64,000 bases of DNA. Source: a virus. Lineage: Duplodnaviria; Heunggongvirae; Uroviricota; Caudoviricetes. Made by a program: the position numbers and the translations under genes. The notes below the pieces were generated by a model that worked only from the letters and a program-made list of their open reading frames with translations, was not told where the DNA came from and ran no database searches. Location of the stretch: positions 382,796 to 446,795 of the IMG/VR virus record IMGVR_UViG_3300049044_000033; one strand, given 5' to 3'. Shown here in pieces: positions 6,005 through 18,330 of the stretch (position 1 is the first letter of the stretch; each line of letters starts with the position of its first letter).

Positions 6005-7276
6005 TTAATGATACTTAAAGTTTTTAATGGAGAGCTTATCACCCTCAAATAAGATATCTGCCGAGGTCAAACGACCACCTTTGCCCGAACCAGTATCCAT
6101 GAAATAGGCTTCGCCACCCATGGCTCCTTGGACAACTAGTGGCTTGAAGGTATTCCTTATGTCGTGACCTACCATGACGCGTTTTCCCTGAGGAATCCTA
6201 TCTACCCATTCGTAGATGCGTGTAGGGTATCCATCAGCTCTCGGAGGAGCATTATTATCCACTTCTCCGAATAGCGCCATCGTCTCAAAACGACCATGTA
6301 GACGTGGGCTATTGATACTGAACATTTCAGGTTCAGCAGCGCCATGAGTGAAGAGTGTTTCTCCAATAATCCAGTGATGCCGAGAGAAACCCATCAGGGA
6401 CTTGAACTTGACTTCAAACTTCCTACGTGCATCCAGGCTCAATGACTCGATAGCATTGGTAGTAACCTTGTTACCATCTGACAGCCTAACCCTAACATCA
6501 TTAAAACGGACCTGTTCTAACCAGCGTTCAATCTTACGTTCATGGTTACCTATTAGACAGATACCACGACCGCGAGTAACAATATTGTAGACGTGATCAA
6601 CACAATCGAGGCTATTGGGCCCGTAATCCACAACATCACCCAGGAATACACAGAACAGATTCCTCTGAGTTGCCCACTCGGTAGCGTTCTTGAGAGGTTC
6701 AACCATTCCATGAACGTCTCCTACTACCATCACGCCTCGATAACCTTTTGCCTCAATGGCTTCTTTCAGCTGGAAGTTGGTCAGCTTTTCAACAACGTCG
6801 AAGTCTTCCTGTCTTGTGTCAATCACGTTAGCAACGTGGTCACCGCGTATAATATCTCTCTCGTTGGCGCGGAAGATCTGATCATGCTTTGTAATAGCAC
6901 CAGTGGCTCCTGCCCTCCAGCTTGTCTTACTCGATTGGAGTTTATTATCTAACTCTTGATTACAGACCACGTAGAAGATAGGCACTCCTACCCTTAAAGC
7001 AATATCAGCTAGGCCGAGACGATCTTTCTTTCGCAAGTTAGTAGCATCTACGACTACCCTCTCACCTAACTCAAGCTTCATTTGAGTTCTTCGGTGTATT
7101 TCCTTGAACACAATATCGTTGATATCAAGGCGCTGATAGTCTCCCAAGATCTCGAATCGAATTTCTTCACTCCCTAGGATCTCGTAGGAAGAAAACTTCT
7201 GATTTGCCCAGTAGGTTTTACCGCCATTGGCAGGACCGACCATGATAACCAGACTGTGGAGTGGAATTTTTTTCAT
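6005..7276 (-). CDS. Polynucleotide kinase-phosphatase (Pnkp-like; P-loop kinase plus calcineurin-like phosphoesterase)
   Basis: GPANGGKT, VVDATNL, GDVHG, GDVVDYG, GNHE, GH and DTG motifs; no ligase domain. Confidence 0.9.
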   Translation of the reverse strand: MKKIPLHSLVIMVGPANGGKTYWANQKFSSYEILGSEEIRFEILGDYQRLDINDIVFKEIHRRTQMKLELGERVVVDATNLRKKDRLGLADIALRVGVPIFYVVCNQELDNKLQSSKTSWRAGATGAITKHDQIFRANERDIIRGDHVANVIDTRQEDFDVVEKLTNFQLKEAIEAKGYRGVMVVGDVHGMVEPLKNATEWATQRNLFCVFLGDVVDYGPNSLDCVDHVYNIVTRGRGICLIGNHERKIERWLEQVRFNDVRVRLSDGNKVTTNAIESLSLDARRKFEVKFKSLMGFSRHHWIIGETLFTHGAAEPEMFSINSPRLHGRFETMALFGEVDNNAPPRADGYPTRIYEWVDRIPQGKRVMVGHDIRNTFKPLVVQGAMGGEAYFMDTGSGKGGRLTSADILFEGDKLSIKNFKYH

Positions 7277-8932: not shown

Positions 8933-9391
8933 TCACTCCACTGCGCTAAAACGCTTGGTGATCTGATGTGCCTCTTCTCTGGTACAAGGACCAATACCGA
9001 GGGCAGTGACGATGGGTTGACCATCGAACGCCGTTCCAGGGATAACGTGGTTCTTGTCTTCGATGAGGGAGGTGATCAGACCCGCAGCCTCAGCTTCTTC
9101 GAACGCACGCCTGAGGGCGTTTTCGTTCTTAGCTTTGAGGATAACTTGGGTGCCGATGAAGTCTGGGCCCTGATAAACACGCAGGAGTTCAGGATCGCGC
9201 CGACTTGCTAGGAGGACACAATTCTTGGCCGCATGACAAGCCTGGCTTGCCAACTTACCTGGCTTCATATCCAGGTCGCCACGAATTATGCTATAAACGC
9301 GAAGCTTTTCAGAGGCAGCTTCGAAGGCCTCATAGTCGTTGTCGTTATCAAAACGAGCAGCGGCTTCCTACAAGAACGAGTTACTGAGCAT
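8933..9391 (-). CDS. pth2: Peptidyl-tRNA hydrolase type 2 with in-frame TAG at codon 8 (9368-9370)
   Basis: Pth2 motif RVYSIIRGDLDMKPGKLASQACHA...TALGIGP; the ORF-track start at 9268 cuts the motif; ATG at 9391 with AAGGA RBS is in frame through one TAG. Confidence 0.85.
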
Positions 9392-9431
9392 TTGCTTTCC
9401 TTTCTATTTGCGTCCAACATCGGACGTCCTC

Positions 9432-10596: not shown

Positions 10597-11040
10597 TTAT
10601 TCAAGCAATCCACGGTCAAAGCATTCATTCAAAACGCCTCGATAAACGCGCATATTTGGCCGATAGGGACCGCGCCCGAAATACTTTGCGTCGTCCCCGT
10701 TAAGGGCCTTCTCAAGCGCCGCAGCAACCGCCGCGCTCCGACATTGCCCCATAAGACAATGAACGTATATGACGCTCGTTCCCGCTTTATTCATGTCTTC
10801 ATAGAAGTCCAAAATAGTCTTCGCATGGGAATCGTCAAACAAGATTCGAGTCTCATTCTCCGGCTCGCCGTTCTTGTATGCATCAATATCGTGGAACTTG
10901 AGATTGAGACGACCCTGAAGGAATTCATTCTCATGAACCTCAGGGAAGTCACCTTTCTCACAGATGCTGATCAGCGCCCAAGGCTTCTCTGGTGGATTAG
11001 CGGCCATCATAGTGGCCCGGCTATAGACTACAAACTTCAT
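10597..11040 (-). CDS. Protein-tyrosine/dual-specificity phosphatase-like protein
   Basis: CX5R motif HCLMGQCRS; FHDID; PN-x-x-V; likely start MKFVVYSR. Confidence 0.85.
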   Translation of the reverse strand: MKFVVYSRATMMAANPPEKPWALISICEKGDFPEVHENEFLQGRLNLKFHDIDAYKNGEPENETRILFDDSHAKTILDFYEDMNKAGTSVIYVHCLMGQCRSAAVAAALEKALNGDDAKYFGRGPYRPNMRVYRGVLNECFDRGLLE

Positions 11041-11071: not shown

Positions 11072-11887
11072 TCAAGCTTCGGACCAAATATCCAGGGCAA
11101 GATCTTCGCGTTGCGCTTGCTGCCAGTTATAGACGCAACGGTCAAGACCAAGGGCAATTTCGAGCACAAGTGCGTCTTTCTCGATTAGACCTTTCTTGCC
11201 CTGGAAGCGAAGCTTCTCGGGGAAATCAGTCCGCTTGCTGATGCTGCAGACTTCCATCCACTTGTCGCCATTGTAGACTTCAACGTCCATCGTGCGAAGT
11301 GAATAAGCGGGAAGGCGGTCTGACTCTACTAGACGAGTGGGCAGGTGAACCATGCTAGCAATCATCTTGCGAACCGGTTCAAGCATTGCTTCCTGATAAT
11401 CATCAGCGGTATCTGCACTGTAGACGCACTGGAATTCCTGCTGGTAGAACTCCTTAAGGCGCATGTGCTTCGTGGGCTGCACGATTTCCCGACGGAAGCT
11501 CTTGCCCGCCTGCCAAACCACGAAGGGCGGCTGAACGCCCGTATGACTATTGAGCAGGTATTGCGCGTAGGAGTAGCTGCCAGGTGTGGTCTCAGGACGC
11601 AGGGCGAGGGCACGAGGAGCAGGACGAGTGCCAGCTTGGATCTCTGTCAGTTCTTCCAACGGCACAACAGAGTTCTGTTCCCAGATATCCTGACCGGTAT
11701 AGTTGACGTTCAGAAGATCTCGCGGTGTAAGCAGCGGTGCTTCGATGAAGTGGAAAGCCCAACGAGGATTGATAGCCAGCAATTGGCTTTGAACCTCACG
11801 AGCAAAGAAATCCCGGAAGGTTTCACGAAGCCTGATCTCCTGCTCATTCCAAAAGACCAAGCCATTAATTTCGTAGGGATTCTGCAT
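11072..11887 (-). CDS. Class II aminoacyl-tRNA synthetase catalytic domain, alpha2-GlyRS-like, without anticodon-binding domain
   Basis: LRPETT; motif 2 QAGKSFRRE...RLKEFYQQEFQ; WMEVCSISKRTDF; motif 3 LEIALGLDR; only 271 aa. Confidence 0.85.
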   Translation of the reverse strand: MQNPYEINGLVFWNEQEIRLRETFRDFFAREVQSQLLAINPRWAFHFIEAPLLTPRDLLNVNYTGQDIWEQNSVVPLEELTEIQAGTRPAPRALALRPETTPGSYSYAQYLLNSHTGVQPPFVVWQAGKSFRREIVQPTKHMRLKEFYQQEFQCVYSADTADDYQEAMLEPVRKMIASMVHLPTRLVESDRLPAYSLRTMDVEVYNGDKWMEVCSISKRTDFPEKLRFQGKKGLIEKDALVLEIALGLDRCVYNWQQAQREDLALDIWSEA

Positions 11888-12024
11888 CAGACATAGCCTT
11901 TAAGCAATGAGGTGAAAAGAAGAGACAACATGGCAACTACAAAGAGCAGGAAGAGTGCTCCGGCCCAAGGAAGACCTTTAGTTTCAGTTCTTAACTTAGG
12001 CGGTTCAGGTCTTTCGGGCATCAT
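11887..12024 (-). CDS. 45-aa single-TM peptide
   Basis: MMPERPEPPKLRTETKGLPWAGALFLLFVVAMLSLLFTSLLKGYV; its TGA overlaps the ATG of the aaRS-like gene. Confidence 0.6.
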   Translation of the reverse strand: MMPERPEPPKLRTETKGLPWAGALFLLFVVAMLSLLFTSLLKGYV

Positions 12025-12037
12025 GTTTTCTCGTATT

Positions 12038-12113
12038 TGGCGCGCCTAGCGAGGCTCGAACTCGCGACCCGCAGATTTAGAGTCTGCTGCTCTACCAACT
12101 GAGCTATAAGCGC
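12038..12113 (-). tRNA. Amber suppressor tRNA (anticodon CUA)
   Basis: GCGCTTA-TAGCTCAGTTGGTAGAGCA-GCAGA-CTCTAAA-TCTGC-GGGTC-GCGAG-TTCGAGC-CTCGC-TAGGCGC-G-CCA: full 76-nt cloverleaf with encoded CCA. Confidence 0.95.
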
Positions 12114-12124
12114 ATTCAACCTTT

Positions 12125-12583
12125 TTAGGACTTATTTTCCAGCTTGTCAAGTCGCTCGACGATTTGACGAAGCAATTCTGTTTGCTCCCGATCGTTTTCT
12201 TTGAGGTGTTCCTGCTCTTCATGTGTGAAGGCGTCGCTGTTAACGATCAGCTGAGCAGAGAACTTGGCGACCAGAAGTGGCTGGATATAGAATACACTGA
12301 AGAACATAAATGCCCCGCCAACGAGCTTGCTGATCAACTTTGTGGGATAGAGGTCACCATATCCAACAGTAGTCGAGGTAACAGTTGCCCACCAGAAGCT
12401 ATTGGTGAGGTCCTTGTCTTCAACAATACTGAAGGTCACTGCCGCGACGGTCATAGCAGAGATAAAGGTTAGAATGAGCGGGAGGGCTTTATTGGCCATC
12501 TTCTGTATGAAGTTAAGTTCCTGGCCTGCCCCTGCAGCGGCCTTTAGAAAGTCGTTACCTGCCCGTTCGATCTGTTTACGCAT
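12125..12583 (-). CDS. KcsA-like two-TM potassium channel
   Basis: SFWWATVTSTTVGYGDLYP filter between two TM helices; AAGGAGG RBS. Confidence 0.92.
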   Translation of the reverse strand: MRKQIERAGNDFLKAAAGAGQELNFIQKMANKALPLILTFISAMTVAAVTFSIVEDKDLTNSFWWATVTSTTVGYGDLYPTKLISKLVGGAFMFFSVFYIQPLLVAKFSAQLIVNSDAFTHEEQEHLKENDREQTELLRQIVERLDKLENKS

Positions 12584-12603
12584 GAATGTTCCTCCTTGCA
12601 CTC

Positions 12604-12631
12604 TCGATAACACAGGAGAACAATTTGTCAA
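12604..12631 (-). promoter_or_regulatory. Sigma70-like promoter heading the channel-tRNA-aaRS operon
   Basis: TTGACA at 12626-12631 with TATCGA 16 nt downstream; preceded by a hairpin at 12636-12661. Confidence 0.5.
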
Positions 12632-12681: not shown

Positions 12682-13290
12682 TTAGGAGAGTTCGCTATAC
12701 TTGCTTGCCATGCGATCCGACATCGCCTGGAGCATACCGGAGATGTTCCGATAAATCGTCGCAAACACACGGCTGAGGAAATCACCGAAGAACGTGCCGA
12801 CGATTGAGAACGGCCAATAAACCATCCAGGTCGTGATACGAGCCTTGTTATTGCGGGCCATACGCTTTACCTGAATGTTCAGGACCTGGACTTCTCGAAC
12901 GTTATTGAACCGGTCACGAACCGTTGGATCTGCTGGAAAATCCTTGAGCGTTTCGCCATTCGGACCAGCAGTTTTGAGGAACTTGGTCCGAATCATATCG
13001 TAGCTCTTAAACAAATCAGGCAAGAAGAAAACTCGCCACTTGATTGTAGCCCAGATTCCGGCCATGCCTAGATAACCTAACAGCCCGTAGACTACATAGA
13101 TTGGGTGAGCCTTGACCGTGGCAACAATCGGGAGATTGCTGAATAGGACGAGGATCAGGACACTTATAAGGAAGGTGAGAGTTGCCTGACCGGCCTTATC
13201 CTGGCTAACCTGAGACGAGAGGATGAGAGTAACGAGGCCGAGGAAGGTCCAAAACAGGATGCCCCCGACGACAAGAAAACTAAAAAGCAT
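12682..13290 (-). CDS. Multi-pass membrane protein
   Basis: 3-4 hydrophobic segments; likely start MLFSF. Confidence 0.75.
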   Translation of the reverse strand: MLFSFLVVGGILFWTFLGLVTLILSSQVSQDKAGQATLTFLISVLILVLFSNLPIVATVKAHPIYVVYGLLGYLGMAGIWATIKWRVFFLPDLFKSYDMIRTKFLKTAGPNGETLKDFPADPTVRDRFNNVREVQVLNIQVKRMARNNKARITTWMVYWPFSIVGTFFGDFLSRVFATIYRNISGMLQAMSDRMASKYSELS

Positions 13291-13291
13291 T

Positions 13292-14635
13292 TTACGCCTT
13301 CTTCCATTCTGTGCCGTGGATTCCATCGGCAAGTGTGATACCAGCGTCTGCAAGTTGCTGGCGAATTTCATCTGCTCGTGCGTAGTCTTTGTTCCTACGC
13401 GCTGCTTGACGTTCGCTTATTAGTTGTTCAACCCACTCTTTGTCAACACCAAAGGTGCGCCATTGGTGAGGAGTTTGGTTAAACAATCCGAGAAGCTGCC
13501 CACCCCTAATAAACTTTGCCTTCGCTGGCGCCCCTCCGCCATGCTCAAGATCATCAGCTAACTCATGCAGAGCAGAGAGTGCAGCCGTGGTATTGAGGTC
13601 GTTGGATAGAGCTTCTAAGACATTCTCTGGTGCATCAACGGCTTCTGGGTAGTTGAGTTCGTCGAACCTCCACAAGACATTATAGAGACGATCTAGCGCA
13701 CGATGAGCACTAGCAAGCTTCTCCATAGTAAAGTCCATAGGACTGCGATAGTGTGATTGCAGGAAGAGATAGCGAACCGATTCGCCAGGATATTGGTCCA
13801 ATAGGTCTCGGAGCAAAATCACGTTGCCTCGACTCTTGCTCATCTTCTCACTGCCTACAGTCAAGAGACCATTGTGGAGCCAATATTTGGCCAGAGGTTG
13901 ACCAGTCACGCACTGACTTTGGGCACATTCTGCATCGTGGTGTGGGAACCTGAGATCCTGTCCACCTCCATGAATATCAATAGTAGATCCACCATAAAGG
14001 CTGTAGATCATAGCTGAACATTCAATGTGCCATCCGGGACGTCCGTGACCCCAAGGTGAAAACCATTTAGGCTCTCCTTCCTTAGCGGGCTTCCAGAGAA
14101 CAAAGTCCCTTGGATCCTTTTTCTTTGGATTCACCTCCACCCGAGCGCCACTATTCCAATGAGTATGGTTAGCCAGACCAGGATGAGGATTACTGGGAAC
14201 GTGGAAGAACACCTCTCCGTCGACTTCATAAGCGTGACCATCGTCTATGAGTTTATGGATGAGAATGATCATACTCGAGACATAATCCGTGGCTTTAGGC
14301 TCCATGTAGGGAGACAAGCAGCACAAATCTTCGAGATCCTGATGATAAGCAATCGTTGCAGTATCAGTGATCTGACTGATCGGTACACCTCGCTCAATCG
14401 AGGCAGTAATAATCTTATCATCAATATCAGTGATATTGCGGGCGTATCGAACCGACTCAGGATAGGTGTATTCGAGAAGCCTATAAAGCTGGTCAAACAC
14501 GATAGCCGGACGAGCATTCCCTATGTGGGCTGGACCATACACAGTTGGTCCGCAGACATACATTGTGATAAGACGATCATCACGAGGGATGAACTCTTCA
14601 AGGCTTCGTGTCTGACTATTGTGTAGCTTGATCAT
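13292..14635 (-). CDS. cysS: Cysteinyl-tRNA synthetase
   Basis: MYVCGPTVY, HIGN, DFVLWK, GRPGWHIECS, DIHGGG, KMSKS and DALR-type C-terminus. Confidence 0.97.
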   Translation of the reverse strand: MIKLHNSQTRSLEEFIPRDDRLITMYVCGPTVYGPAHIGNARPAIVFDQLYRLLEYTYPESVRYARNITDIDDKIITASIERGVPISQITDTATIAYHQDLEDLCCLSPYMEPKATDYVSSMIILIHKLIDDGHAYEVDGEVFFHVPSNPHPGLANHTHWNSGARVEVNPKKKDPRDFVLWKPAKEGEPKWFSPWGHGRPGWHIECSAMIYSLYGGSTIDIHGGGQDLRFPHHDAECAQSQCVTGQPLAKYWLHNGLLTVGSEKMSKSRGNVILLRDLLDQYPGESVRYLFLQSHYRSPMDFTMEKLASAHRALDRLYNVLWRFDELNYPEAVDAPENVLEALSNDLNTTAALSALHELADDLEHGGGAPAKAKFIRGGQLLGLFNQTPHQWRTFGVDKEWVEQLISERQAARRNKDYARADEIRQQLADAGITLADGIHGTEWKKA

Positions 14636-15061: not shown

Positions 15062-15495
15062 TACCGACCACCCATTTGAAGCTTACACAGGACGGCAACC
15101 TTAGAATCAGTGAAACCGATCTCTACTGGAATTTTGGCCCCGATGAGATTGTCTCGAGTTGGGTGACAAGTAAACCGCATCAATCCCTTACCATGCTGCT
15201 TAAACCATGTCTCGAGGTTGATTCCACCAGCTTCAACCTTCCAATCCATTCCTCGGTATTTTAAGAAGAGTCGGACGTCAGCTTCATGCAGGACGACACG
15301 GTAATAATAGCTAGGTCGCCATTGCCAACGACGCCACCGACCCATTACCCGAATGTGAGCATTGTCTCTTCCACGAGTCTTAGACCAAGTCCAAACCGGC
15401 CCACTCTCTAGCAGCCGCTCGACTAACTCCCTCAACGACTTTCGCAAGGTCACAAGCATAGAGTCCCGCGCAGCTAAATCCGTTGAGTTCGACAA
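15061..15495 (-). CDS. Hypothetical protein, LFKLxW family (start uncertain)
   Basis: C-terminal GFTDSKVAVLCKLQMG; true start probably downstream of 15380. Confidence 0.55.
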   Translation of the reverse strand: MSNSTDLAARDSMLVTLRKSLRELVERLLESGPVWTWSKTRGRDNAHIRVMGRWRRWQWRPSYYYRVVLHEADVRLFLKYRGMDWKVEAGGINLETWFKQHGKGLMRFTCHPTRDNLIGAKIPVEIGFTDSKVAVLCKLQMGGR

Positions 15496-16216
15496 TCTTC
15501 GGCCCTTCTTCTGTCAACGCAACGTCGCAGGTGTATGCGACGTCTACTTGCCATCCCTGTTTAGCTACTTTCTCGGCTAGAGTAAAGCACTCTTCTGGCC
15601 AGTCGCGTCGGATATCCAGCTTGCCGTCCCAGCGGTATTCTGAACCTGTAATCACTTCCTTGTCAGCGATCACAAAACGAAACTCGCCTTGTATATCCTG
15701 GCACTGGTTGACCAGAATCAAAGTATCATCGACCACACTACTGGTCTGATCCAGAGAGGATATGTCATGATCAATCGTACCAAACTTGACCTTATGACCC
15801 GCGAAGGTTTTGAGGCCACTATTAGGGCGAATGAATAGCTCTCCTGCATCGAAATTGTAGAACAACTCTCGGGCACGATGCTTAAACATCGCCCAGGTCA
15901 TCATATTGGCATTTCGATTCATGAACCAATCGAGTGGGAGATTGCTCATGTAGGAAGAGGCTTGGGTTCTAGCATTCACACCTAAGGCACCAGGCTGATA
16001 CTGGTGGGATTCTACATATCGGGTGAATTCATGTGACCCGTAGAGAACCACACATTTGTCGTTGGCAACCAGGGGATCACTGTAGGTGCCGTCAGGGTGA
16101 CGATCAACAAAGATTGCTTCGTGACCGGCCTCGCGGACGTAGTGGTCAATGGTATGGCGATCATATGAGAGTTTCTCAAGAATGCCGCGGTCTAAGAGCC
16201 AGATAATAGGAACCAT
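15380..16216 (-). CDS. ATP-grasp domain protein (R2K/DUF4343-like)
   Basis: LFIRP...KTFAG, EFRFVI...ITGSEY, DVALTEEGPKIVELNGFSCAGLY. Confidence 0.8.
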   Translation of the reverse strand: MVPIIWLLDRGILEKLSYDRHTIDHYVREAGHEAIFVDRHPDGTYSDPLVANDKCVVLYGSHEFTRYVESHQYQPGALGVNARTQASSYMSNLPLDWFMNRNANMMTWAMFKHRARELFYNFDAGELFIRPNSGLKTFAGHKVKFGTIDHDISSLDQTSSVVDDTLILVNQCQDIQGEFRFVIADKEVITGSEYRWDGKLDIRRDWPEECFTLAEKVAKQGWQVDVAYTCDVALTEEGPKIVELNGFSCAGLYACDLAKVVEGVSRAAAREWAGLDLV

Positions 16217-17127: not shown

Positions 17128-18330
17128 TTACTCCTGCCCCTTAGCATCCCTCAAGTCATACCAGGACAACCCGCCCCATAGATGCCTCACAGAATCTACT
17201 CGGCTTTGGCTTGCCAGTTTGTTACCCACGAACTTGACAAGGTATTCATAGAGAGCAGCCTCTCCCTCTTCTAAGCGATCCCACATCCAGAACTTGATGC
17301 CATTCAGAATATCATCCTTGCCCTGCAGGTTCTTTTCGGCGAACTTCTTCTTGCTTCCGTTGAAGTTGTCGAAATCGGCTTGAACTTCCCAGTAGAGATC
17401 ACTTGCGAGCTTCTTCAAACCTGTGAAGATAGTCATGCCAAACTCGTCAGCCTTGGCAACTAGATCTTCAGGTAAGAAAGGCTTGGCATCATCAAGTTTC
17501 TCGTCAATGATCAACCGGATGACATCCTTCTCAAGAGTCATGTGCTCCAGAGTCTTGTGGATCTGGCAATACCATTCACCCTTGAGCTTGCGAGCATGTC
17601 CGTTAATGTCACGCCATACATCGCCTTCTGCACCCTCGAGGGCACGGATTTCCTCAAGGAGTTCCTGGTCAAAACCAGTCATCTCATAGCTGGCATAGAC
17701 TAGAGGGATATCATAGGCTTCTGCCTCTTCCTTCATTTCCTCATAGGTCTTATATTCACCGGTGATGTTTTCACGAATAGCCGTTAAGATCAACTTGGAA
17801 TCAGGATAGTCGATAACAATCCTCTGCTCGCGAGAGCACCATTCAAAGATAGGTGTCCAGCCCTGGCTCATCCAATACTTTGCGAACTCGTGATAGTTGA
17901 CCTTGTCCTTAGTGAATCGGTCAACAGGCTTTGCCACATCAGTCAAACCCATCTTCGTAGCCCAACGAACTTCTCCATTGATCAACAGAGGAGTGATCAT
18001 TGAACCATCAAGCTTTTCGAAGCGACGATAAGGGATTGACCAGTCAATGTTCTGCGGCAAAGTCTCGGGGCGTTCTCCCAAGTTGAAGAACTTGTGATAC
18101 TTGCGTGAGATGATCTCACCCGTCGATGTGCGGAACGTAACACCACGACACTCGCGCAGAATTGCCGTGCGCTCATCGGTCACCGGAGGGAAGGTATCAT
18201 CAAAGTTTACCGCATAGTTGATGATTGTGTAGTCGTGCTCTTCATTGACACGAATCACAAACTCTTCATGACCTTCGATGGCTTTGAGCACTTGGTCGAT
18301 ATGAGTGATGCGAGGAAACTGGTAAGTCAT
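17128..18330 (-). CDS. RNA ligase 1 (T4 Rnl1 family)
   Basis: RECRG, KFFNLGE, motif I EKLDGS, TPIFEW, EG and KLKGEWY. Confidence 0.92.
   Translation of the reverse strand: MTYQFPRITHIDQVLKAIEGHEEFVIRVNEEHDYTIINYAVNFDDTFPPVTDERTAILRECRGVTFRTSTGEIISRKYHKFFNLGERPETLPQNIDWSIPYRRFEKLDGSMITPLLINGEVRWATKMGLTDVAKPVDRFTKDKVNYHEFAKYWMSQGWTPIFEWCSREQRIVIDYPDSKLILTAIRENITGEYKTYEEMKEEAEAYDIPLVYASYEMTGFDQELLEEIRALEGAEGDVWRDINGHARKLKGEWYCQIHKTLEHMTLEKDVIRLIIDEKLDDAKPFLPEDLVAKADEFGMTIFTGLKKLASDLYWEVQADFDNFNGSKKKFAEKNLQGKDDILNGIKFWMWDRLEEGEAALYEYLVKFVGNKLASQSRVDSVRHLWGGLSWYDLRDAKGQE

Follow-up and report, generated by a model that had tools for sequence, protein, structure and literature searches.

The window, i.e. 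the whole stretch of 64,000 nucleotides analysed here, is a part of a complete 462-kb phage genome (G000), which carries at least 62 tRNA genes, three of them with the anticodon CUA, and encodes full-length SerRS, GluRS and CysRS. The genes of the locus described here all lie on the minus strand and follow an order shared by a clade of related loci: RNA ligase, R2K ATP-grasp protein, CysRS, membrane protein, channel, tRNA, variable cargo, a small synthetase-like protein (hereafter mini-synthetase), phosphatase, Pth2 and a Pnkp-like protein. In the window, they are represented by a T4 Rnl1-type RNA ligase (17128..18330), an R2K-clade ATP-grasp protein (15380..16216), a full-length cysteinyl-tRNA synthetase (13292..14635; TIGR00435, 451 bits, above the cut-off), a conserved membrane protein of the block that belongs to no family (12682..13371), a potassium-channel-type membrane protein, whose stop codon is located 11 nt before the start of the tRNA (12125..12631), an amber suppressor tRNA (12038..12113), a 45-aa ORF with a hydrophobic stretch (11887..12024), the mini-synthetase (11072..11887), a tyrosine/dual-specificity-phosphatase-like protein, whose start was set by comparing relatives (10597..11040), the peptidyl-tRNA hydrolase Pth2 (8933..9391) and a Pnkp-like RNA end-healing enzyme, which combines a kinase (AAA_33) and a metallophosphoesterase (6005..7276). 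Comparison with relatives identifies the 45-aa ORF as the variable cargo between the tRNA and the synthetase, and it is similar to the C-terminal part of a 172-aa cargo gene found in one relative. The full-length Pth2 gene comprises 152 codons, of which codon 8 is a UAG that would have to be read through. The gene for the potassium-channel-type protein, which adjoins the tRNA, is present in most of the clade, and in one relative the CysRS gene is interrupted by a stop (L141:2922-4271).

Judged by gene neighbourhood, the cultured phages nearest to this one are Phosso of Sinorhizobium and Atu_ph07 of Agrobacterium, and the phage GluRS is closest to that of Sphingomonas among the plasmid records; the host is therefore probably an alphaproteobacterium. 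Phosso grows on Sinorhizobium, which also points to alphaproteobacterial hosts.

The tRNA gene, which runs from 12113 to 12038, is 76 nt long including an encoded CCA end. ARAGORN reports the anticodon CUA, the Rfam tRNA model matches with 69.6 bits, and the minimum free energy fold is a short-arm cloverleaf, with the acceptor pairs G1-C72, C2-G71, G3-C70, C4-G69, U5-G68, U6-A67 and A7-U66 and the discriminator G73. The preliminary description of this DNA had reported just such a complete tRNA, separated from the synthetase gene by a gap of 150 nt that holds a 45-codon ORF, and the coordinates match. It had also placed both genes in the same apparent transcript, of which a common orientation is what the sequence shows; promoter and terminator scans around them gave results at the chance level, and their co-transcription is plausible. 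The structure characteristic of tRNA-Pyl is absent (the anticodon stem has 5 bp, the variable loop 5 nt, and the D and T loops are ordinary), and the pyrrolysine label assigned by ARAGORN rests on the anticodon only. Absent as well is the identity set of bacterial tRNA-Gly, U73 and C35/C36 (taken from PMC9976931), in place of which the tRNA has G73, U35 and A36.

Among the 19 orthologous tRNAs of the clade, the discriminator G73 and the CUA-AA loop never change, while the acceptor stem varies: G-C and C-G occur as pair 1, C-G, U-A and G-C as pair 2, and any of the four as pair 3. Pairs 2 and 3 have the pyrimidine-purine orientation in 17/19 and 16/19 cases, respectively, and the glycine-like set G1-C72, C2-G71, G3-C70 occurs in 2/19. 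This variation is not a matter of general drift, because the genuine tRNA-Gly genes of these phages retain the set, together with U73, in 14/16 cases. CUA/G73 tRNAs constitute a common class in phages; we scanned 96 distinct unrelated ones, 13 of which exhibit the glycine-like acceptor, so that this feature of the window tRNA is no commoner than chance within its class. In this survey, matches of the CUA pattern that start with TTCTAA turned out to be mostly tRNA-Arg(UCU) and were dropped after ARAGORN analysis; the pattern can miss tRNAs, and its looser version gave pure noise.

The 271-aa mini-synthetase is a stand-alone class IIa core that matches the Pfam tRNA-synt_2b family, its best sequence matches in the PDB are α2 GlyRS enzymes, and its predicted structure (pLDDT 94.7) superposes best on α2 GlyRS. 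These comparisons agree with the earlier description of an α2-GlyRS-type class II core that ends after motif 3. With the structures from M. tuberculosis (8t5n), T. thermophilus (1ati) and N. equitans (5z5e) it shares the class IIa fold (Foldseek E-value 7.6e-16; Z 23.8, rmsd 4.4 with 251 aligned residues by VIA), the RPET motif, the motif-2 arginines, the three acidic residues of the glycine site and the motif-3 arginine. It differs from them in a short insertion, another motif-2 loop, the substitution of Gln for Glu at position 153 and of Ala for the motif-3 Ser, and above all in the lack of the anticodon-binding domain; its score against the GlyRS family profile is 60.9 bits, far below the cut-off of 312. 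To judge from its sequence, it is like the catalytic half of α2 GlyRS but lies outside that family. The anticodon-binding domain PF03129 was not found anywhere in the phage genome, and a search for a longer, fused form of the mini-synthetase, a weak test, revealed none.

Proteins of this kind form a large jumbo-phage family with 1,367 clusters of similar length and 20 GenBank phage records, and beyond motif 3 its members have a median of 11 further residues (110 members). The Atlas clusters are mostly viral, and a few cellular copies occur in rhizobial isolates; PHROGs contains no family for these proteins, and our literature search retrieved no description of them. In 102 distant members, the near-invariant residues are E99, R132, E134, R143, F147, Q149, E151, E212, E243 and R250, i.e. 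those whose GlyRS counterparts bind ATP and the amino group; among them, the glycine-site glutamates of the RPET motif, motif 2 and motif 3 (E99, E151 and E243) are kept in 98-100 of the 102. Because of this conservation, the mini-synthetase is most likely active, and by analogy with GlyRS its substrate is most likely glycine or an amino acid of very small size. The Ser that closes the pocket in motif 3 is replaced by A245 in the window protein, and the distant members have Ala in 83/102 and Ser in 14/102 cases. The changed pocket residues (QQEFQ, LEIA) had been noted in the preliminary description as leaving the amino acid open, but these segments, together with Q153 and A245, are found throughout the family, also in members unlinked to the tRNA. 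Likewise, we could not define a pocket or motif-2 signature private to the clade with the CUA tRNA: EI[VI]Q is typical of it, yet QP-KH occurs also in unlinked members. Among the variants of the family, a subgroup of 331-355 aa (L113, L114, L116, L118, L130) carries extra sequence: a long insertion separates motif 1 from motif 2, at the site of the acceptor-binding insertion of GlyRS; one member (L020:10001-10738) has the motif-3 arginine replaced by cysteine, and the genes in L035, L125 and L132 appear broken or frameshifted.

The relationship between the tRNA and the mini-synthetase was examined in 74 distinct loci whose sequence extends at least 2.5 kb upstream of the mini-synthetase gene. 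A CUA tRNA was found upstream in 20 of them, all of which share one gene order and belong to the single syntenic clade; within that clade it is present in all 20 loci with enough flanking sequence, across 62-100% protein identity. Among the remaining 54 loci, no CUA tRNA was found within 2.5 kb upstream, and one within 3 kb. A lack of linkage between synthetase homologues and CUA tRNAs, which the preliminary description had named as refuting its idea, is thus seen outside the clade and not inside it. The reciprocal search gave a similar result: no mini-synthetase was found in the loci of the 96 scanned CUA/G73 tRNAs, and one is present in 1/28 complete genomes with CUA tRNAs. Phage XacN1 and genome G094 possess the same type of CUA/G73 tRNA without the mini-synthetase, while CcrSC and Domovoi possess the mini-synthetase and about 30 tRNAs each, none with the CUA anticodon. 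Since the tRNA and the mini-synthetase largely occur apart across genomes, a dedicated partnership is a property of neither family, and their adjacency in the clade most likely reflects shared descent. We also searched for clade members that keep the tRNA at the locus but have no mini-synthetase and found none, so that the independence of the tRNA is demonstrated in more distant phages only.

What the mini-synthetase acts upon is a separate matter. Its fold and residues suggest that it may glycylate tRNA, and we consider a tRNA of some kind a slightly favoured acceptor. However, no tRNA isotype, Gly included, is enriched beside its gene (the raw values of 20% vs 9% are not significant under within-locus shuffles), and which tRNA it would charge is therefore a guess. 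Alternatively, it might charge no tRNA and transfer glycine to a protein or a small acceptor, like EpmA or the carrier-protein ligases, or synthesize dinucleoside polyphosphates. The lack of an anticodon domain in all members, the mostly short insertion and the motif-2 loop unlike that of GlyRS are consistent with such a role, as are the presence among the fold matches of the amino acid:carrier-protein ligase Bll0957 (Z 20.5), the 28 of the 54 loci outside the clade that have no tRNA within 3 kb, and the rhizobial cellular copies, which lie among accessory genes without a tRNA. On the other hand, 19 of the same 54 loci have an ordinary tRNA within 1 kb, often only 15-50 nt away, no conserved carrier or substrate gene adjoins the mini-synthetase, and the closest matches in both sequence and fold are true GlyRS enzymes. 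No neighbour was seen to recur from one clade to another. Bll0957 and EpmA/GenX (Z 13.8) resemble the mini-synthetase as stand-alone class II cores without an anticodon domain, but they are derived from SerRS and LysRS, respectively, and have fixed protein acceptors. On balance, a role outside tRNA charging seems unlikely, although it fares better than the other alternatives considered below. One of the rhizobial copies (L137:4995-5744, in a 7.5-Mb isolate genome) was seen by eye to lie near an extra TyrRS-like ORF and NUDIX-like and HIT-like ORFs.

According to another possibility, the mini-synthetase charges the CUA/G73 tRNA of the clade, probably with glycine and independently of the host, and the two together open the Pth2 gene. 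Several observations speak for it: the tRNA is kept in all 20 clade loci, 200 kb from the main tRNA array, and stays where CysRS or the channel gene has been lost; pairs 2 and 3 of its acceptor stem are mostly of one orientation, as noted above; and a precedent exists in PylRS, an enzyme blind to the anticodon of its CUA tRNA, which likewise has G73 (PMC9976931). Moreover, in a survey of 61 Alphaproteobacteria, to which the hosts are likely to belong, GlnRS, the usual charger of such tRNAs, was found in 7 and DTD, a deacylase that strips glycine from G73 tRNAs (PMC6097841), in 4. An argument from DTD against glycine on a G73 tRNA is valid for E. coli-like hosts and was dropped here in view of these counts. 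Because both enzymes were mostly not found in the likely host class and no clade member was found with the tRNA alone, the pair retains some probability within the clade, though a low one. Against it stand the rarity of the glycine-like pairs among the orthologues compared with the true tRNA-Gly of the same phages, the occurrence of G73 also in Asn, Asp, Trp and Ser tRNAs, the same motif-2 loop in enzymes whose partners begin with C1-G72 and G1-C72, the existence of the tRNA type without the enzyme and of the enzyme without the tRNA (besides the phages listed above, also on a rhizobial chromosome), and the spacing of the genes: in most clade loci the tRNA lies about 10-35 nt from the preceding gene, whereas its distance to the mini-synthetase ranges from less than 30 to 1,874 nt. 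The mode of recognition proposed in the preliminary description, via glycine-like pairs of the acceptor arm, is not supported, as pairs 2 and 3 vary freely and conservation is confined to G73 and the anticodon loop. The dedicated pair is weakly supported, and it is doubtful that an anticodon-blind GlyRS core of ~270 residues and its own amber tRNA would form a minimal orthogonal switch for a UAG-locked Pth2; if the amber tRNA were in fact charged by the mini-synthetase, code expansion would gain an orthogonal pair of very small size.

We consider it rather likely that the tRNA is charged independently of the mini-synthetase, probably by a synthetase of the host for which U35 and G73 are recognition elements. 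Of 29 non-orthogonal phage CUA tRNAs tested in E. coli extract, 28 inserted glutamine (PMC12636597). The candidate host enzymes would be GlnRS, where present, and otherwise TrpRS, LysRS or a non-discriminating GluRS. In discriminating GluRS enzymes, one residue reads C36; the phage GluRS is an unlikely charger, because it keeps an arginine at the position aligned with that residue.

The tRNA appears to have a target in the Pth2 gene, which lies 2.6 kb further downstream. This target, a UAG as the eighth codon, had been overlooked in the preliminary description. The ORF called at this site starts at 9268, and its match to the Pfam PTH2 model begins only at model position 13, so that the first β-strand of Pth2 is missing. 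In frame upstream of 9268 lie 33 codons, a TAG (9368..9370), seven codons, an ATG at 9391 and a ribosome-binding site (AAGGA, 9398..9402), the AAGG core of which is present in 15/15 loci compared. When the TAG is read through, the PTH2 match starts at position 3 and its score rises from 61.6 to 73.6 bits (+12). Among 22 Pth2 loci, which are related to each other, the stop is TAG in 21 and TGA in Atu_ph07, while the ordinary gene ends of the same block have TAG in 8/227 cases. TAG also terminates leaders that differ in sequence and in length (7, 6, 3 and 3 codons), each of them with a ribosome-binding site, and among stop-led genes of this type in the phage genome Pth2 alone has a positive coding score; TAGs upstream of the CysRS, R2K, Pnkp and ligase genes were considered as similar gates and found to be intergenic. 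The ratio of synonymous to non-synonymous changes is 174:23 in the leader and 556:173 after the TAG, which indicates that the leader and the 33-codon spacer evolve in the manner of coding sequence.

The exception in the above comparison is informative. Atu_ph07 has TGA at codon 7 of Pth2 (L501 near 14690) and encodes a tRNA with the anticodon UCA (opal; L719:1471-1545), while neither a CUA tRNA nor a mini-synthetase was found in it; codon and anticodon have changed together (TAG/CUA vs TGA/UCA), in this single switch. In GenBank, the Pth2 gene of this phage starts downstream of the stop. TAG-led Pth2-like genes occur also in the more distant phages G023, G031, G061, G068 and G011, and a Pth2-like gene with an internal TAG in G034. 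The complete genomes G061 and G068 combine such a gene with a CUA/G73 tRNA in the absence of a mini-synthetase, and in G061 the tRNA lies 1.5 kb before the gene. In the complete genome G007 (L707), Pth2 is TAG-led and no CUA tRNA was detected, which could be explained by a TTG restart or an overlooked tRNA. In the window genome, two more CUA tRNAs exist, so that the copy at the locus need not be the sole key.

Together, these comparisons make a UAG gate on Pth2 highly probable, with the read-through product as its predicted outcome. The converse, that the TAG is the ordinary stop of a tiny upstream ORF, that Pth2 starts at ATG 9268 and that the tRNA is a bystander without a target, would agree with all gene callers, which place the start at the inner ATG, and with scans for read-through at gene ends, which were empty here as in the published analysis of XacN1 (PMC5852040). 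However, it is very improbable, given that the 33 codons from the TAG to 9268 are under purifying selection and contain Pfam positions 3-12, that no ATG, GTG or TTG lies between the TAG and 9268 in ten loci examined, and that the stop is always TAG despite the differing leaders, except for the TGA in the phage with the UCA tRNA. Even less credible is genome-wide recoding of TAG (code 15), with the tRNA serving many genes: it would fit the three CUA tRNAs and the few TAG stops (49/655 crude gene calls), but the genes are intact under table 11, frames extend past TAG no longer than past TAA or TGA, and no release factor gene was found in the phage genome.

We therefore favour, with a probability of about 0.6, the explanation in which Pth2 is gated by a suppressor tRNA inside a tRNA-rescue block and the mini-synthetase is a neighbour. 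The phage amber suppressor tRNA would serve as a key rather than as a change of the code: ribosomes would start Pth2 at 9391 and halt by default at the UAG of codon 8, unless a charged CUA tRNA outcompetes host RF1, which would yield the whole hydrolase, including its first β-strand. Since the leader that contains the UAG varies in length between phages, any amino acid inserted there would do, and if the inserted residue does not matter, drifting acceptor pairs combined with a constant G73 and anticodon loop would be expected. A likely purpose of the gate would be to delay Pth2 until the phage tRNA accumulates or termination weakens; a motive based on cleavage of initiator fMet-tRNA by Pth2 was also considered, found no support in the papers searched and was left out. 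The RNA ligase, the Pnkp-like enzyme, CysRS, Pth2 and the mini-synthetase would make up the rescue block, which resembles a toolkit by which tRNA could be repaired, set free and charged anew. The mini-synthetase, with its observed fold and residues, would be a core that forms glycyl-adenylate, glycine being suggested by these features, and as an inherited item of the block it would most likely recharge tRNA without reading anticodons. One known type of tRNA damage is the acetylation of Gly-tRNA by host toxins (PMC9976931), which a hydrolase acting together with a glycine-charging core could conceivably undo.

Several known systems resemble parts of this arrangement. PylRS of the N-terminally short class is also a class II core of 270-280 aa; the mini-synthetase is, however, GlyRS-like, with PylRS as a weaker fold match (Z 17.0), and the tRNA differs from tRNA-Pyl in its canonical cloverleaf and in occurring without an obligate enzyme. 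The TrpRS and tRNA(UCA) of phage AP1 have been shown experimentally to be an orthogonal pair (PMC12636597), and there too a phage synthetase gene adjoins a suppressor tRNA. The AP1 enzyme, in contrast, belongs to class I and is described there as part of code-change operons, while the phage studied here is not recoded and its tRNA and mini-synthetase are at most a candidate pair. A tRNA of the same type is that of XacN1, a jumbo phage with the standard code, which shares G1-C72, C2-G71, a pyrimidine-rich 5' strand and G73, often accompanied by an A73 twin in this class. No CUA target was found past the gene ends of XacN1, where its authors looked (PMC5852040); the UAG at a gene start supplies a target for suppressor tRNAs that have been reported without one in standard-code jumbo phages.

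The competition between suppression and release-factor action at an early stop of a translation-factor gene is reminiscent of programmed stop-codon read-through, of recoded phages and of RF2 autoregulation. The Pth2 gate differs from them in that it concerns one gene and would be opened by a phage tRNA, not by a frameshift or by recoding of the genome; our literature search found no paper on a suppressor-gated Pth2 in phages. The annotation of Pth2 as a shorter gene hides the UAG. The switch from TAG/CUA to TGA/UCA is testable in cultured phages (Phosso and Atu_ph07), and the mini-synthetase family, as a natural synthetase core free of an anticodon domain, is of interest for studies of minimal synthetases.

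Finally, the tRNA searches revealed several unusual genes. CUA tRNAs often occur as tandem twins with A73 and G73, as in XacN1 (L664), G094 (L680), G024 (L186), L146 and L147; in the phage genome studied here the copy with A73 is found at G000 153582, and the one with G73 is that of the window. The third CUA tRNA of this genome (L150:18830-18903; G000 185829) has A1-U72 and A73, and it shares its 5' end and position with the tRNA-Trp(CCA) of the relative G001 (L721:440-511); it is, by this resemblance, a recent Trp-to-amber change. The same genome contains short-arm 'Ser(UGA)' tRNAs that have an unusual loop (CGUGAAG) and lack a long variable arm (G000 169327-169402 and 182686-182759; L150), as well as an odd tRNA called Gly(UCC), with G73, at G000 189738. 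Elsewhere, five Leu-like tRNAs form a run (L084:9455-9842), several of them with possible four-base anticodon loops, and the clade member G005 has a low-scoring UCA tRNA (L722:1490-1566) in its array, beside its CUA tRNAs.
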